A DNA stretch of 64,000 nucleotides, from positions 128,001-192,000 of the forward strand of contig JBCCQQ010000003.1 in assembly GCA_039024555.1 (NCBI GenBank). The letters are read 5' to 3'. This document shows, piece after piece, positions 3,937-10,221 of this stretch. The stretch comes from Cyanobacteria bacterium P01_D01_bin.156. GTDB lineage: Bacteria; Cyanobacteriota; Cyanobacteriia; Phormidesmidales; Phormidesmidaceae. The notes below the pieces were generated by a model that did no database searches, was not told the DNA's origin, and worked only from the letters and a program-made list of their open reading frames with translations. How positions within the stretch are numbered: position 1 is the stretch's first letter; the number at the start of each line of letters is the position of its first letter. Made by a program: the position numbers and the translations under genes.

Positions 3937-3968
3937 GAGCAAGGAGCGCTCAAAGCATCTATAAAAAA

Positions 3969-4041
3969 TGGAGCTAAGCGGGCTCGAACCGCTGACCCCC
4001 TGCATGCCATGCAGGTGCTCTACCAGCTGAGCTATAGCCCC
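3969..4041 (-). tRNA. tRNA-Ala(GGC)
   Basis: Reverse complement GGGGCTATAGCTCAGCTGGTAGAGCACCTGCATGGCATGCAGG...GGTTCGAGCCC...TAGCTCCA; folds as cloverleaf with anticodon GGC. Confidence 0.97.
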
Positions 4042-4358
4042 ACGCTTTAGTAATAATCTCTTGCAAAGGAACTATCGTCAAGGGGGTCGAGCAATTCATA
4101 TTCCTTACAGTCAAAGACCATAATTCAATATTCTCTTCCAGAGTAGAAGCGTTTTTGACCATCCGCCAATCCAGTTTGTATTCCAATAACTCATCAAATA
4201 TAATTTGAGCATTAGGAATTAATGCATCAATTGGGTCAAACAGTTTTTCATGAAAAGTCAGTCTTCAGAAACAAAGGGTATTCTTAAAGACTGACTCCAA
4301 TTTGACAAAAGCGTCTCAACTTAAATGACTCAAAAATCTTGTATTAGACTTGTTGCGG

Positions 4359-4592
4359 TCAGAAAAGTTTGTTGCCTCCAGAGATATAATTTTTAACCAT
4401 CTCAATTACCTGAGTAAGTACAACTCCAAATACAGCAAATGCAGTTTGATCTATTAGTTGCTGTAGTCGCTTGTCGTCTCCGGCCTGGATTGCTCTTTCG
4501 ACTTTCTTTTTAAATTGGCTGTCTCTGCTTGCTTGGTAACGAATCGCGTCCAACAGCTCTTCCTCATTATAGTCTAGCCTATTATCGGACAT
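4359..4592 (-). CDS. Small helical protein (77 aa), paralog of 4656-4877
   Basis: AGGAG RBS before ATG 4592; DYNEEELLDAI...FGVVLTQVIEMV. Confidence 0.75.
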   Translation of the reverse strand: MSDNRLDYNEEELLDAIRYQASRDSQFKKKVERAIQAGDDKRLQQLIDQTAFAVFGVVLTQVIEMVKNYISGGNKLF

Positions 4593-4655
4593 GGACTTAC
4601 TCCTGGTTAACATCAATCTGACTCTAGAAGGTTCTGTAGCACGTGCGACTATAAC

Positions 4656-4877
4656 TTAACTCAAGATCCCTCTGGAGATTAGCTCTCGAACAACAGCAAT
4701 AACTACATGAGTGATAATCTGCCCAAAATTTCTCATACTGATTTTCTCAGAGAGTTTTTTAAGTAAACTCTTATTCTTCTCTCTCTTCGCCTCTTCCAGT
4801 TCTTGTTTGAGTTTGGCATTTCTTTTTGCCTCTGCTTTGATAGCTTGCAGGAGTTCTTCTTTGCTGTAATCATCCAT
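4656..4877 (-). CDS. Small helical protein (73 aa), paralog of 4359-4592
   Basis: GGAGG RBS inside the GTPase 3' end; DYSKEELLQAI...FGQIITHVVIAVV. Confidence 0.8.
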   Translation of the reverse strand: MDDYSKEELLQAIKAEAKRNAKLKQELEEAKREKNKSLLKKLSEKISMRNFGQIITHVVIAVVRELISRGILS

Positions 4878-4879
4878 AA

Positions 4880-5881
4880 CTAACCTCCAATTTTATTCAA
4901 GTCAAAAACAACTTTTTGCTTATCCATATCAAAAATAAGCATGTTACACATCCGTTGAGCATGGGAAAAAGCAAGGTTGTTCATCGTATCTTCGTGGATG
5001 AACTGATTGAATCGGCCAATTGCTTCTTTGCCAAGCTTATTGACAATCACTAGCATCAAATAACTGAGATTAAATCTAAATCGGGAAGAGCATGGAATTA
5101 CCTCATAATTGTGGCTTAGGCGTTCAAAAACATCGGCATGGTTGGGATATTTGGATTGAAGCTCCGCTAGATCAAAGTCGAAGATTTTGCCAGTGTAGGT
5201 TATTTCAAATTCATCCACAGTGAAATTGGGATGCTCAATCGAGAATTCCTGATCTTGGTCATTATCCCGATAGGTGCTTGACTTCAAGCTATTCTCATAG
5301 GGGCGAATTAAAATATCTCGATAGTACTGCTGCTTGCGGTCTATGACTTTTGTTGTTGCCTTTCCTGGGGTAAAAAAGCCGTTTTTACCAGTTTTTGCAA
5401 AAATCCATGGAGAGTGGGTGAGTAAATCAACCTTTGTCATGACAAAGGTAATTTTGTTCAACAGTTGTGTCTTTTGGTTTTCTTGAAAAGAGTTGAGGAT
5501 CTTATCTAAGGATTCTAAGTCGAAATAAACAGCTCGACTATCTGCATGAATTGCCCACAGAACGACATCGGACTCTAGCAGCTTTTCTTTATATGCCTCC
5601 ATATATTCAGCATCTTTTTTGTCAGATTCTCCGATACCGGGAAGGTCATAGAACCAGAGCTCATGGCCTTCAGAGCCCTGGGCTATTACTTTTTCAATGT
5701 CTTTGGTACATGGCTGCACATCATCAACGGGCAAATCCACATTAAATAGAGCATTGATCAGTGATGTCTTACCTACTCCGGTTTGTCCCATGATAGAAAC
5801 AACTAAGGGTTTACTAATCTCTTCGCGTATCGCTTTTTCGACCGCATTTTTTAGAATTTCAACGTCTTTGACTAGGGACAT
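4880..5881 (-). CDS. Era/YfjP-like (MMR_HSR1-type) GTPase
   Basis: G1 GQTGVGKTS, G2 CT, G3 DLPG, G4 TKVD; GAGG RBS. Confidence 0.88.
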   Translation of the reverse strand: MSLVKDVEILKNAVEKAIREEISKPLVVSIMGQTGVGKTSLINALFNVDLPVDDVQPCTKDIEKVIAQGSEGHELWFYDLPGIGESDKKDAEYMEAYKEKLLESDVVLWAIHADSRAVYFDLESLDKILNSFQENQKTQLLNKITFVMTKVDLLTHSPWIFAKTGKNGFFTPGKATTKVIDRKQQYYRDILIRPYENSLKSSTYRDNDQDQEFSIEHPNFTVDEFEITYTGKIFDFDLAELQSKYPNHADVFERLSHNYEVIPCSSRFRFNLSYLMLVIVNKLGKEAIGRFNQFIHEDTMNNLAFSHAQRMCNMLIFDMDKQKVVFDLNKIGG

Positions 5882-5969
5882 GGTTTTTCCTCAATGTGTG
5901 GTGTGTTGGCTAGACTTAATCGGGACATGTGAATGTCATTTATTTGCAATGTAGTAAAGGCCATTATTC

Positions 5970-6248
5970 TTAACCAAAAAGCACAAGAATGAGAATAACG
6001 GTCAGCATAAACAGGAACACAAAATTAACGTCTGGATACTTTGGCTTTGTTTTTTTTCGACGAGCTTCTAACGGATTTTGCGAAAAATCACAGAGAAGAC
6101 ATCGATAGTGTTTTCCTTTCTGCAGCAGTGTATGTTCTTCGCATTTTGGACATTGATGTAGAATAAGAATGCTCGATTTTTCGATGTCTTCTAATCGGAG
6201 AGTAGGTTGATTCTGATTCTGAGAGAGTTTAGATTGACTCATGGTCAT
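5970..6248 (-). CDS. Small Zn-ribbon protein with C-terminal TM helix
   Basis: CPKC...CLLC, basic patch, then VNFVFLFMLTVILILVLFG. Confidence 0.75.
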   Translation of the reverse strand: MTMSQSKLSQNQNQPTLRLEDIEKSSILILHQCPKCEEHTLLQKGKHYRCLLCDFSQNPLEARRKKTKPKYPDVNFVFLFMLTVILILVLFG

Positions 6249-6307
6249 TGAGTTTCAGAAGTGTGAAACTGTAATCTGCTTAAAAAATAGCAGGTGAAAT
6301 TCTCTGC

Positions 6308-6353
6308 CATTACTGAACCATCAACAGGTTGGTTAGTTGATGGTTCAGTAATG
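6308..6353. terminator. Perfect 18-bp inverted repeat
   Basis: CATTACTGAACCATCAAC-N10-GTTGATGGTTCAGTAATG. Confidence 0.55.
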
Positions 6354-6629
6354 ACACTAAGACTTTAGGCAGCTAGATATTTGGTGTAACAGACACCTGA
6401 CGCTTAGGCTCCTAGACAGTTGTTGCCAGGAAGCTTAGGTATCTGTTTCAAATCATGACTGTTTGTTCCCTACCATCCATTCTCAGTCCAAGACTGAGGC
6501 AATGGGTTGGCGTAGTTCCCTTAAGTCGTATTTGCCAAGCTATCGTGACTCCACAAGCTATTGTGCTCGTTAATGTACTTGTCATTTTGAGTGATGCAAG
6601 TATTCATCTCCCAAGTGAACATGGCGACC

Positions 6630-6887
6630 TTAAAGAGGAGTAATTACAAGCTTGAGGTTTTGACGTCCAACAACTTGGACATAATCGCCAGGAACAAGAT
6701 CAAAATCGCCTTGAGAAATTGCATGCCAGTAAACGCCGTGAAGCTTTACTCTGCATTCTTTGTATGAGGCAAATACCTCATCTACGATTCCTTGTTCTAG
6801 ATGATTGTTAGGGTGTTGGTTAAACAACATGGCTCTTGATCCGTTTAATAGGGGTTTAGGTGAGATAAAACGCCAAAAGTTTTTCAC
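6630..6887 (-). CDS. Short NfeD-like (C-terminal OB-fold) protein
   Basis: GIVDE...RVKLHGVYWHA...PGDYVQVVGRQNLKLVITP pattern. Confidence 0.8.
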   Translation of the reverse strand: MKNFWRFISPKPLLNGSRAMLFNQHPNNHLEQGIVDEVFASYKECRVKLHGVYWHAISQGDFDLVPGDYVQVVGRQNLKLVITPL

Positions 6888-7259
6888 ACTTATAGTCTAG
6901 ACGCATCACTTGAAATGGATTCATGCAGATACGCCTGCAAAAGCAACTGCATGCTTTGCAGTAGAGTTAAGTCTCACTGCTTCCTGTGCCATTGATATAG
7001 AGAAAACTCTTGCTATTCTGAGAATCTGGATGCCAATGACACCACAACACTCTGATTGAGAGTGCTCTTGGAGAGTGAATCTTTTGACTACAAAACTTTG
7101 CTGGAGATAACTATGAGAGTATTGCGTAAACAGCATGACTCATCTTCCATTTAATGATGCTGTAAGTGAGTTGAACTGCGTAAAAAGTTCTCTCACATTT
7201 ATAGTCTAGACGCATCACTTGAAATAGATTCATGCAAATACACCTGCAAAAGCAACTGC
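6884..7259. repeat. 67-bp direct repeat (6884-6950 and 7193-7259), 309-bp period
   Basis: TCACA(C/T)TTATAGTCTAGACGCATCACTTGAAAT(G/A)GATTCATGCA...GCAAAAGCAACTGC, 4 mismatches. Confidence 0.95.
6965..7196 (-). pseudogene. Decayed duplicate of the NfeD-like gene
   Basis: Follows repeat copy 2; LNGR*VMLFTQYSHSYLQQSFVVKRF aligns with LNGSRAMLFNQHPNNHLEQGIVDEVF; GGTGTCATTGGCAT vs GGCGTTTACTGGCAT (1-nt loss in GVYWH). Confidence 0.65.
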
Positions 7260-7637
7260 TGGTTTTGCCGTAGTTCTGGACAAGAACTTTCTGCTCCTTA
7301 GACGAGCATCATAAGTCGCTATAGTACCGCTAGCACCGTTAGGACAAAGCTATAACGGTATTTCGTTTGTTGGCAAGCAGGATAGTTTTCCTCAGTAGCC
7401 TAAAGTAAATGGCGCAGCCTACAAAAGGAGCACAAAACTAAAGCGGGACACTTCCTTTAAGCATTTGGACTACTCTGGCAGGAGCATAACGCTCTATGGG
7501 ATGCAATTTCTTTGCAGTTTCTGACTTTTTCCCTATCAAGAATTTCCTAGATTAAGTTATGTATGCCTCTCAAATTTGGTATTACAGAGCGTAGCAAGCT
7601 AACTTCGACAGTGCTATAGATTCATGATCAGTAACTA

Positions 7638-7653
7638 TGTAGCATAAGCTACA
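7638..7653. promoter_or_regulatory. TGTA-N8-TACA palindrome (NtcA-type site or local operator)
   Basis: TGTAGCATAAGCTACA in the divergent intergenic region. Confidence 0.45.
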
Positions 7654-7793
7654 CTTGCAAGACTTTTCTGCGTATTTTGATAGGTCCTATTCTGTATAAA
7701 GTGTAAAAAAATATGTCTCCGTATGTCCTAAAGCCTGACAATAATCTGATAACTAATAAGTAAGCATCAAGTCTACCGCTCTTAATTTTTGGA

Positions 7794-10139
7794 ATGAGTG
7801 CATTGCCCGGTGGTTCCCTGACCCTTAAACCCGAATATTGTGACAGATTTAGAAAGGAGGCAAAAAGAGAATTTGGCAACGGACGTTATCTTACAGGACT
7901 GCAGGAAGCAGTTAATCAAACGTTAGAACCTCAGGATCAAATAAGTATCTATACAATCACTCGTGCTCTTAATGGCACAGGTATACGTGGATACAATATG
8001 CAGCCAATATGCCAACATTTTGGCGTCAGTTGGCAGGAAGGGTGCATAGAAGGTCATGTAAATTTGAATGGTCATAATGGTTTTAAGGTAGCGACGAAAG
8101 AATTAGAGGGCCTTGTTAATCAAATCCTCGGCAAAGTTCAGTTTGAGTTTTCCTCCAGAACACTGGCGGGCGGTGCACAGACTTCGAGCAGCTGGGTCCA
8201 GGATAACTTTGTTGAGTTAGATTTTTATGAAGTAGACCATCTACCCGCTGACTATCCAGTTTTAGATCCTACAAGGTTGAAGTATCAGGAAAACAATGAC
8301 GATGACGATGAGTTTGTTCGGCAACGAATAAGGTTTCCACGGGCAAAAAGGATTACACTCAGACAGTTGCTTCAGAAACACCGAAGTGTTTTTATCTATG
8401 GAGACCCGGGTTCAGGGAAAACTAGCTGCTTAGAATGGATAGCGCTCAAGTGTCAAGCTAGAGAGTTATTTGAGGGATGCGTTCCCATTTTTCTCGGTTC
8501 TCGTCGGTTTGCTACCGCAAACAAGAGTGAAACTCTGCTTTCTTTGTTTGAAAAAATGTTCATTCAGTGGGGTTTTTTACCAACAGATCTGAATACCCTC
8601 CTTGAAGCAGGGCGGGTGGTGTTTATTTTTGATGGCCTAGATGAGACGCCCGTTGCTGAACGAGAACGGATGGAAATTATGATCAACGAATTGATTCGCG
8701 ATCATCCTAAATGTCACTTTTTTTGTAGCTCTCGCCTAGGATTAGAATACTCTTTCTCAAGCAATTTCCCAAAAGTTTTTGTTGCTCCTTTCAAGAGAAG
8801 CCAAATTGAAGACTTTGTCACATGTTGGTTCTCGCAGCTTAGTAAAGATCCTGGGTTAGGAACTTTAATGATTCAAAAGCTCAAATCTACTACATACAGT
8901 GGGATTAAGGAGCTTTCGACTCGTCCTGTTTTATTAGAGCTGCTATGTTTTGTTTTTGAAGGCATACAGGACTTTCCTCCAAAGCGATTTGAGATTTTCA
9001 GGAATGGCATCCAGCGGATGACCCGTAAGAATATTCAGATAGAGACGGATATTCCTGAACTCTCTGTGCTTCGAGAACAACATATTTATACTATTCTTTG
9101 TTTGGTTGCCAGCTATTTTTTTATTAATCTAAAGGGGCAAATCATCTTTCCCACACTAGCTGTTGAGGGGATTATTAGGAAATACTTCAAAGAGAAGTTG
9201 AACATTGATGGAATTAGTGTTCCTGATCGGAAAATTCTTCAGGCAATTGAGCAGTCCAACGGTCTTTTAACACGCTGGGCGCATGATTTTTGCTCTTTTT
9301 CTCACTTAACCTATCAGGAGTTCTTCACAGCAGAGTATCTTGTTAAAACTAGTCGATATGATGAAGTTTACGAGCATATCAACAATCCTCGCTGGCACTA
9401 TGTCATTGGCCTAGTTGCCGAATGTATTCCCTATGAAAAGACTTTGCCGTTTTTTACTGGTTTCAAAGAGCGTATTGATCAAGAGATTAGTGAGGATAGA
9501 GATATAAGACTCTTTTTGAGAGTATTAGAAGGCGTTACTCAGGCTACTGCTGCTGGGATAAAAAGCAATCGCCCTAACATGACAACTTATATTCGGGCTT
9601 GGTACTTTGTTTATGCACTTCAAGATCCTGGGCAAGTGACCAATGTCGGTTCCGTTAAACGCTATTTTGAGCTACCTGATTTTGATTTTGCAACTAGTAC
9701 TGTCAGTAATAAAAGGCTAGAGTGTCATGGCTTAGTTTATAAGGTCTATCACCGTATGAATAAGGGAACAATGGGGCCAGAGTCATTTTTGAATTCCTTG
9801 GAACAGTTGGTTCGATTATTGACCGGGGATATCAAAAATACTGAAGTTGTTGAAGGTTGGTTGCACCTTATCGGGCGAGAACAGTTAAAGTACCAAGACG
9901 CTGATGCATGGTGGAGCACTAACTATGAGAATTGGCAAAAGCGTATTGTGACGTTTGTAGAAACTTTGAAAATGCCGAGTACGATGCGGCTAACGCTATC
10001 TCATAGGAAAAAACTGCGAGCCTACTATGAGGCTACTAAGCTACTCTCAATATGCATGAATCGTTCGTCACTCAACGATCTACAGCGTCAGGCAATGTCT
10101 GATTCAATGTTGACTATTATTACTAGAGATACAGAATAG
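7794..10139 (+). CDS. NACHT (STAND) NTPase with N-terminal HTH-like region and C-terminal helical domain
   Basis: Walker A GDPGSGKT, Walker B VFIFDGLDE, FSHLTYQEFFTA motif; N-terminal ISIYTITRALNG...ICQHFGVSWQE; C-terminal WW...YYEATKLLSICMN. Confidence 0.9.
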   Translation: MSALPGGSLTLKPEYCDRFRKEAKREFGNGRYLTGLQEAVNQTLEPQDQISIYTITRALNGTGIRGYNMQPICQHFGVSWQEGCIEGHVNLNGHNGFKVATKELEGLVNQILGKVQFEFSSRTLAGGAQTSSSWVQDNFVELDFYEVDHLPADYPVLDPTRLKYQENNDDDDEFVRQRIRFPRAKRITLRQLLQKHRSVFIYGDPGSGKTSCLEWIALKCQARELFEGCVPIFLGSRRFATANKSETLLSLFEKMFIQWGFLPTDLNTLLEAGRVVFIFDGLDETPVAERERMEIMINELIRDHPKCHFFCSSRLGLEYSFSSNFPKVFVAPFKRSQIEDFVTCWFSQLSKDPGLGTLMIQKLKSTTYSGIKELSTRPVLLELLCFVFEGIQDFPPKRFEIFRNGIQRMTRKNIQIETDIPELSVLREQHIYTILCLVASYFFINLKGQIIFPTLAVEGIIRKYFKEKLNIDGISVPDRKILQAIEQSNGLLTRWAHDFCSFSHLTYQEFFTAEYLVKTSRYDEVYEHINNPRWHYVIGLVAECIPYEKTLPFFTGFKERIDQEISEDRDIRLFLRVLEGVTQATAAGIKSNRPNMTTYIRAWYFVYALQDPGQVTNVGSVKRYFELPDFDFATSTVSNKRLECHGLVYKVYHRMNKGTMGPESFLNSLEQLVRLLTGDIKNTEVVEGWLHLIGREQLKYQDADAWWSTNYENWQKRIVTFVETLKMPSTMRLTLSHRKKLRAYYEATKLLSICMNRSSLNDLQRQAMSDSMLTIITRDTE

Positions 10140-10170
10140 ACAATACTTTCAAAGTTTTCAGCATATATAG

Positions 10171-10221
10171 ATCAATCAATACCTTCTGAATAGTCAAACT
10201 ATTCAGAAGGTATTGATTGAT
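10171..10221. terminator. Perfect 24-bp inverted repeat after the NACHT gene
   Basis: ATCAATCAATACCTTCTGAATAGT-CAA-ACTATTCAGAAGGTATTGATTGAT. Confidence 0.65.

Follow-up and report, generated by a model that had tools for sequence, protein, structure and literature searches.

Two separately recurring modules, a NACHT–NfeD candidate switch and a GTPase–partner cassette, adjoin between tRNA-Ala and raf1 in a cyanobacterium

XssQ (Slr5058) of Synechocystis PCC 6803 is a helix-turn-helix (HTH)-STAND protein that activates transcription (PMC8205485), its Anabaena homologues carry NACHT domains (PMC12267927), and it is the sole cyanobacterial NACHT-class protein with a shown target in the literature searched, cyanobacteria being the bacteria with the most NACHT paralogues (10.1101/2022.07.19.500537). 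Here we analyse a 64,000-nucleotide stretch of Cyanobacteria bacterium P01_D01_bin.156 (the window), where a block of six genes is flanked by tRNA-Ala(GGC) on one side and raf1 on the other. It holds a NACHT gene facing genes for an NfeD-like and a zinc-ribbon protein (module A), and a GTPase gene with a small helical partner, here doubled (module B). The block is almost certainly a join of two separately recurring modules and not one conserved system.

In layout, the window NACHT protein resembles XssQ: a likely HTH head precedes a STAND NTPase, the protein is cyanobacterial, and it is a plausible activator of nearby genes. Unlike XssQ, it has no XssS/XssR or polysaccharide genes nearby, its divergent region lacks the motif AAGTTNNAC, and its partners are NfeD-like and zinc-ribbon proteins. 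With the bacterial antiphage NACHT proteins (10.1101/2022.07.19.500537) it shares the D[GAS]hDE Walker B signature, NCH2 and many paralogues per genome; it differs from them in having no enzymatic effector, in its conserved divergent partner genes and in falling below the cut-off of curated antiphage models. The PF01957 OB-fold is common to the window NfeD and to NfeD-SPFH pairs, but the window protein has neither membrane helices nor an SPFH gene and is paired with a STAND gene instead.

For the GTPase, the closest named G domain is that of YfjP and the 290-residue GTPases of enterobacterial mobile islands (48% identity over 96 amino acids), YeeP and YkfA being paralogues of YfjP; compared with this type, the window protein has about 70 additional residues between G4 and G5, another C-terminus and a separate partner gene. 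The likeness to IRG (Irga6, Irgb10, GM4951), GIMAP and Toc34 proteins lies in the top profile and fold matches, a hydrophobic residue after G3 and a helix before the G domain. Unlike in IRG proteins, the G domain alone aligns (TM-score at most 0.38), the chain itself carries no IRG helical domain, and there are an inserted subdomain and a partner without a solved match. IRG-like cyanobacterial GTPases have been reported, their relationship being left unresolved there, and a hydrophobic substitute for Ras Gln61 is described as far from diagnostic (PMC1297648). The DO-GTPase/GAP1 (PMC7159879) and Eleos systems are similar in joining a mobile TRAFAC GTPase to a dedicated downstream partner in multicellular bacteria, and LeoA of Eleos is a weak profile match to the window GTPase (E 7e-10, G domain only); unlike them, the cassette has no three-domain GAP1, variable effector or second dynamin-like gene. 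GTPase loci of different phyla have no neighbour in common except the small partner gene, GAP1 and LeoB/C genes being absent, and DO-GTPase systems are nearly absent from cyanobacteria (PMC7159879). PMC13156569 and 10.64898/2026.10.19.760177 served as background.

Two modules and their separate occurrence

Six-frame profile searches found no NfeD, zinc-ribbon or NACHT gene, nor a further gene of NACHT loci described below (gene X), at any of 135 GTPase loci; neither the GTPase nor its partner turned up at any of 39 loci around NACHT relatives or the tRNA/raf1 gap. Since no locus combines both modules, the six-gene array is seen only here. The GTPase is present in none of 150 same-family genomes and in 2 of 400 genomes of the phylum; the NACHT protein is matched in 13/21 same-genus genomes at E 1e-45 or better.

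The first-pass annotation had placed the six genes correctly in position and strand (Table 1) and had proposed them as a single co-occurring module. As a six-gene system the proposal fails, conservation of the array being rejected because none of the other loci searched holds both modules, whereas each half is a real, recurring unit. The explanation that goes with it, a single co-evolved unit that disrupts membranes and consists of a STAND sensor, an NfeD scaffold, a GTPase and the two amphipathic paralogues, fits the adjacency, co-orientation and equal guanine-plus-cytosine (GC) content of the genes, as well as the HTH-STAND genes that face the cassette in two other cyanobacteria; the counts above, together with a doubled partner found at no other locus, have already largely refuted it, and we regard it as very improbable.

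That the block is not a named system was borne out: no curated antiphage model scored above its cut-off, and the pairings were not found in Pfam, NCBIfam or PADLOC. A named defence system was accordingly rejected for the block, the defence-model searches falling below cut-off. Neither an NfeD-STAND pairing nor such a GTPase pair appears in the literature searched, a scope with subscription papers mostly outside it, as were Table S1 of 10.1101/2022.07.19.500537 and Additional file 1 of PMC1297648, which may list members. The protein types are known; of the NfeD-STAND pairing and of the GTPase-partner cassette no description turned up in these sources.

Table 1. Features of the block and its left border, in window positions
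Feature	Position	Strand	Remarks
tRNA-Ala(GGC)	3968..4042	-	left border, variable gap ahead of raf1
Small helical partner, copy B, 77 aa	4359..4592	-	ATG after AGGAG box; open-reading-frame finder start 4616; module B
Small helical partner, copy A, 73 aa	4656..4877	-	four helices; starts 2 nt past GTPase stop; module B
TRAFAC GTPase, 333 aa	4880..5881	-	YfjP-related G domain, long alpha/beta segment between G4 and G5; module B
Zinc-ribbon CxxC..CxxC protein	5970..6248	-	one C-terminal membrane helix, max KD19 2.8; module A
Hairpin, 21-bp	6305..6356		between nfeD and zinc-ribbon gene; 95% complementary
Soluble NfeD-like OB-fold protein	6630..6830	-	66 aa from ATG; 85 aa from GTG 6887; module A
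Intact-nfeD leader, 90-nt repeat copy 1	6875..6964	-	candidate promoter or operator
Second nfeD copy, frameshifted pseudogene	about 6939..7136	-	from 309-bp tandem duplication
Broken-nfeD leader, 90-nt repeat copy 2	7184..7273	-	
NACHT STAND protein, 781 aa	7794..10139	+	Pfam NACHT + NCH2; module A
Hairpin, perfect 24-bp	10171..10221		closes block before raf1

The NACHT module and soluble NfeD genes

The call of a NACHT/STAND gene on the plus strand is confirmed by a Pfam NACHT domain (E 1e-17) with intact Walker A (GDPGSGKT) and Walker B (FDGLDE) motifs, and by NCH2 at the C-terminal end. Residues about 1–85 are likely an XRE-type HTH: among aligned N-termini, HTH_31 is matched in 5/14 and HTH_26 in 3/14, weakly at E 0.002–0.1, and our own profile of six cyanobacterial XRE-type heads matches the N-terminus at E 4e-7. 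The HTH head proposed earlier is weakly supported, with no Pfam match in the window copy itself. About 17 NACHT paralogues occur in the genome.

We examined 20 loci surrounding the closest NACHT matches, 18 of them of the window's clade (by tree, two partial ones by similarity); this tree and that of the GTPase were quick versions with long branches and served grouping only. The zinc-ribbon gene faces NACHT in 11/18 of these loci, the NfeD-like gene in 7/18 and gene X in 11/18, mostly in the divergent order X, NfeD, zinc ribbon, and two of the 18 have none. Gene X encodes 250–280 amino acids (one of the 11 copies is truncated by a contig end) and has 41 relatives, almost all from related cyanobacteria where named; no remnant of it was found in the window or genome, and it has no match in Pfam, NCBIfam, PDB or ESM Atlas, blanks that show neither novelty nor absence. 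An example lies at L137:8346-9107, with relatives at L138-L143, L148, L149, L153 and L154.

Elsewhere, the NACHT loci of the window's clade sit outside the tRNA-Ala/raf1 gap. This gap was read in 19 same-genus genomes (L371-L389), 18 of them evaluable, and in 13 it holds a distant-clade NACHT gene with a different head and the module in opposite orientation, NfeD being present in 12 (two copies in 2) and the zinc-ribbon gene in 11; the other 5/18 are without such a module. Because the distant-clade modules carry the same partners, the trio is shared by two deeply separated NACHT clades. The gap serves repeatedly as a NACHT-NfeD-zinc-ribbon slot, in which the window genome carries the other clade. 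The slot adjoins raf1, a Rubisco assembly gene.

The orphan NfeD OB-fold gene noted on the minus strand matches PF01957 (E 2.7e-8, 34.3 bits, cut-off 29.1), has no membrane helix (max KD19 0.57) and, with no SPFH gene in the block, is an orphan indeed; the CxxC/CxxC membrane protein is likewise upheld by its C-terminal hydrophobic helix (Table 1). Absent from the first-pass annotation is a 309-bp tandem duplication that includes a frameshifted nfeD copy and its leader. The two 90-nt leaders are 87% identical, against 56% in the coding parts, and copy 1 (6875-6964) has no stable fold.

In the window genome all four anchorless NfeD genes face a STAND gene, and the one membrane NfeD precedes an SPFH gene, forming a canonical pair (contig C66). 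The other head-to-head sites are C27:21456-24482, C13:47331-50991 and C10:71547-75171, two with NACHT-NCH2 proteins and one with WD40 repeats.

An NfeD profile was then run on 60 other genomes of the class. From 120 matches, 80 regions were taken (52 with an open frame of up to 146 amino acids, 28 longer) and split by hydrophobicity into 29 membrane NfeD genes, of which 25 have an SPFH gene in their region, and 51 anchorless ones, of which 46 were kept after dropping three contig ends and two wrong open frames. A divergent Pfam STAND-type NTPase lies within 1.5 kb of 16/46 anchorless NfeD genes versus 1/29 membrane ones (Fisher p 0.0014, or 0.011 with orthologous pairs merged, kin not being independent). 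These 16 cases come from 10 genomes and 6 families and form about 11 non-orthologous pairs; in two further anchorless cases the divergent gene has a Walker A motif only. The layout recurs with NACHT, NB-ARC and AAA_35 proteins of differing HTH types. Several canonical membrane NfeD-SPFH operons (among L293-L348) were also seen to face, as they often do, a gene for 600–740 amino acids, four with PP2C phosphatase matches.

By analogy with XssQ, the NACHT protein would rather probably be a transcription regulator of its divergent genes. Alternatively, it could be a protein-level antiphage sensor of the nucleotide-binding leucine-rich-repeat (NLR) type, with NfeD, zinc-ribbon and X proteins as adaptors or effectors rather than transcription targets. 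Bacterial NACHT proteins do protect against phage, DNA-binding heads are among their adaptor domains (10.1101/2022.07.19.500537), partner genes are gained and lost among loci, and the window protein sits on a long branch, at most 47% identical to its orthologues versus 75–82% for raf1. The head-to-head layout across three NTPase types with varied HTHs, however, fits regulators, the module keeps a fixed chromosomal place in most of the genus, there is no enzymatic effector domain, and no antiphage model exceeds its cut-off (DS8 26.8 bits vs 790; PADLOC PDC-S60 matches the NTPase part only), so that we find a sensor of this kind decidedly unlikely. If soluble NfeD-like genes mark NACHT divergent promoters, they would supply ready targets and a candidate cofactor for the whole class, and NfeD would have a role beyond SPFH scaffolds.

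The GTPase and its predicted complex with a small helical partner

A threshold of E 0.001 yields 310 further relatives of the GTPase, those listed being 43–54% identical over nearly full length, bar one fragment. Its genome loci are spread over Actinomycetota, Cyanobacteriota, Chloroflexota and Bacteroidota, with four further phyla represented by one entry each, and many are from filamentous organisms. Across 54 sequences, G1 GQTGVGKS/T, T59, DLPGIGES, D114/R116, TKxD and C264-S265 vary little or not at all; with its catalytic motifs intact, the protein is very probably an active GTPase. At the Ras Q61 position the family has a hydrophobic residue (I 52/54, L 2/54).

The model (per-residue confidence, pLDDT, 87.8) comprises a long N-terminal helix, the G domain and the alpha/beta segment between G4 and G5. 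Only the G domain finds matches by fold, at TM-scores of 0.31–0.38, led by a small GTPase (Z 16.4; root-mean-square deviation (rmsd) 3.9, 187 aligned) and followed by LeoA (Z 14.8; 3.5, 184), BDLP (Z 14.6; 2.9, 178) and Toc33 (Z 14.0; 3.8, 197), while IRG proteins and Era tie as top solved-structure profile matches (E 1.5e-11). E. coli YfjP, the closest named relative, has the motifs DLPG[IV]GES and xADxR in common with the family, which forms its own branch apart from the YfjP type. Of the earlier label, Era/YfjP-like, the YfjP half therefore stands, and Era is rejected (39.2 bits against a cut-off of 237, and Pfam shows no KH domain). Plasmid records all match over less than 80% of the query, and viral, phage and plasmid collections gave distant G domains only, with no full-length family member.

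Two side observations concern relatives. In three GTPases of the partner-bearing family (P0080, P0092 and L055:6092-7264) the C-terminus ends in a hydrophobic, glycine-rich tail, which suggests that some members associate with membranes. On Nostoc punctiforme plasmid pNPUN03, a shorter YfjP-like GTPase (L392:4001-5082) is followed by a 66-residue helical gene with a weak profile match, possibly a sister cassette.

A helical gene of 65–85 amino acids lies directly 3' of the GTPase at 48 of the 61 genome loci with room downstream, a count for which the partner profile was partly built from those same loci. In metagenome loci, some from the same organisms as the genome set, a partner follows the GTPase in 36/43 evaluable cases (of 70). 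The two paralogous proteins of about 75 amino acids in the window are confirmed as such: copies A and B are 35% identical over 68 residues, and copy B matches the partner family profile at E 2.8e-24. This doubling is unique to the window among 48 and 41 loci with a partner. The family has 168 representatives, almost all standalone. No GTPase-partner fusion was found among the collected GTPases, whose lengths are 183–583 amino acids only. The small protein (copy A model pLDDT 85.9) has no family in Pfam, NCBIfam, ESM Atlas or PDB, blanks that show neither novelty nor absence; its best fold match has Z 5.2, rmsd 2.4 and 73 residues aligned. In P0214 and P0222 the partner domain is fused to a CFI-box-CTERM domain (NF041770).

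Modelling of the GTPase with the small protein, which had been suggested as a check, predicted contact with high confidence, with a score of 0.87 for copy A and 0.00 for the best control; this mark was reached by 116/157 solved and 2/215 mismatched pairs, counts that apply only approximately when our own alignments are used. The runs agree in at least 94% of contacts, with partner pLDDT at least 86. On the GTPase, the modelled interface takes in residues 3-22, 160-174, 203-207, 224-226, 250-254, 273-301 and 317-324 and spares all G1–G4 residues, placing the partner on the face opposite the GTP site. A similar solved complex was not found in the structure searches made. On this model, the GTPase and its partner likely form a physical complex.

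Tentatively, the partner could be the detached helical tail of YfjP-type GTPases. Aligned with the enterobacterial GTPase tail, it gives a weak match, best on the last 55 residues (hhalign probability 2–12%), with a score of 15.1 against 8.5 ± 2.0 (maximum 13.2) in 60 column shuffles; YfjP itself gives -0.2 bits.

Possible control of the cassette, proposed mechanism and alternatives

In the window, the GTPase cassette lies on the same strand as the zinc-ribbon gene, 88 nt away and at equal GC. A STAND-type HTH-headed gene faces the cassette within 1.8 kb at 5/19 cyanobacterial GTPase loci, two of the five having full HTH-STAND genes and two being close kin; in one related locus group the cassette faces a DUF4384 gene whose head is unmatched by profiles (six were Pfam-scanned). 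The 5/19 loci make a regulatory link from NACHT to cassette plausible and hint that the cassette is often placed under HTH-STAND-type regulators. Control of the window cassette by NACHT falls somewhat short of an even call, and an action of the cassette on membranes, though possible, is on balance doubtful.

The reading we prefer, itself evenly poised, is an XssQ-like NACHT switch that gained the GTPase and the doubled partner as extra cargo. As in XssQ, a signal read by the C-terminal part of NACHT would lead to nucleotide exchange and oligomerisation, and the N-terminal HTH would bind the divergent region, probably at the 90-nt leaders, turning on the minus-strand genes. The NfeD-like OB protein and the membrane-anchored zinc-ribbon protein, whose pairing with NACHT is observed, would be the standard targets of the switch and would probably act back on it as cofactor and membrane tether. 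In the predicted complex, the partner folds around the rear of the GTPase, over its N-terminal helix, inserted strands and last helices, and the GTP face stays free. GTP-loaded complexes might then dimerise via their G domains, so that the amphipathic helices at the C-terminal end of the partner become accessible to a membrane or target, the result being an inducible stress or defence output. This last step is suggested by the hydrophobic residue after G3, the invariant Glu85 and Arg116 and the likeness to Toc34, GIMAP and IRG proteins. GIMAP and Toc34 dimers and the MnmE glutamate offer analogies. Irga6 is described as being activated through a G-domain dimer (PMC3042988).

Several results weigh against this switch-and-cargo reading. 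On the regulatory side, neither Pfam nor PDB gives a match for the HTH of the window NACHT copy, the divergent region lacks the XssQ motif AAGTTNNAC, a blastn comparison with orthologous loci brought up no common leader motif, and the hairpin at 6305-6356 may cut the transcript. A Pfam-called divergent STAND gene is missing at 30/46 anchorless NfeD genes, a ratio that may be biased by a search profile derived from STAND-linked copies. As to the cassette, 13 genome loci miss the partner, 7 of them being the evaluable Streptosporangium loci, where the GTPase stands without it, and at L264 a partner occurs without a GTPase, no remnant being found within 16 kb or in that genome. In the model most partner residues, much of the hydrophobic face included, touch the GTPase, and transmembrane-level hydrophobicity is reached in only 8/33 partners. 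PADLOC matches near the GTPase (9/145) do not significantly exceed those of the control (2/81; p 0.34), which comprised 81 of the 109 candidates at 25 membrane-NfeD loci, with long proteins trimmed to 400 amino acids.

Alternatively, the cassette could be a mobile pair in its own right that merely inserted at the tRNA side of the gap, in which the partner caps and silences the GTPase in a toxin-antitoxin-like or self-contained defence mode and NACHT exerts no control. tRNA genes are common landing sites. The spread of the GTPase is very patchy, with eight phylum labels and the 2/400 phylum genomes given above, several copies are broken, most of the partner surface is engaged in GTPase binding in the model, and some loci adjoin toxin-antitoxin-like, McrBC, DpdE, KAP NTPase, Fic or TerB genes. 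Nevertheless, the partner binds away from the GTP site, its gene lies downstream, GTPase-only loci are known, neither an integrase nor a tRNA-end duplication was found at the block, the defence enrichment is not significant, and the viral, phage and plasmid collections hold no full-length family member. We consider such a pair rather unlikely, if the strongest of the alternatives.

Returning to the switch with captured cargo, a wider and quite unlikely extension would be that filamentous cyanobacteria possess a family of NLR-type transcription switches, each with its own soluble NfeD OB-fold cofactor, and that one member took in a GTPase of two chains, its membrane-binding helical part being encoded on its own and open to duplication, as an inducible bacterial counterpart of interferon-induced GTPase immunity. 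The cassette is in any event a tractable two-gene unit with a confident predicted interface, from a YfjP-like/IRG-like branch, and makes the role of bacterial IRG-like GTPases directly testable.

As to the block itself, the lower GC content described earlier holds (40.0% vs 47.1% in the genome). Among sequencing runs listed as containing the sequence there was no RNA set, and the one DNA set may be its source. Sigma-70 and terminator scans gave no signal over chance, and an Rfam scan returned only the tRNA, plus sub-threshold hairpin matches. Both hairpins exist and are single-copy in the genome, with z-scores of -6.8 (6305-6356) and -12.3 (10171-10221) against 200 shuffles; of the two called perfect, the second is so and the first is not (Table 1). 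The first, not called by the terminator scan, is possibly a terminator or RNA-stability element. In the sequence to the left, the RecJ-like gene at 45-2081 is lengthened at its C-terminal end by a long segment that includes a coiled-coil stretch and for which no Pfam family passes its cut-off. Positions 7320-7423 have a 106-nt match (79%) in the same genome at C1:174475-174580, upstream of another small two-CxxC open reading frame, the match being a shared element or a gene remnant.

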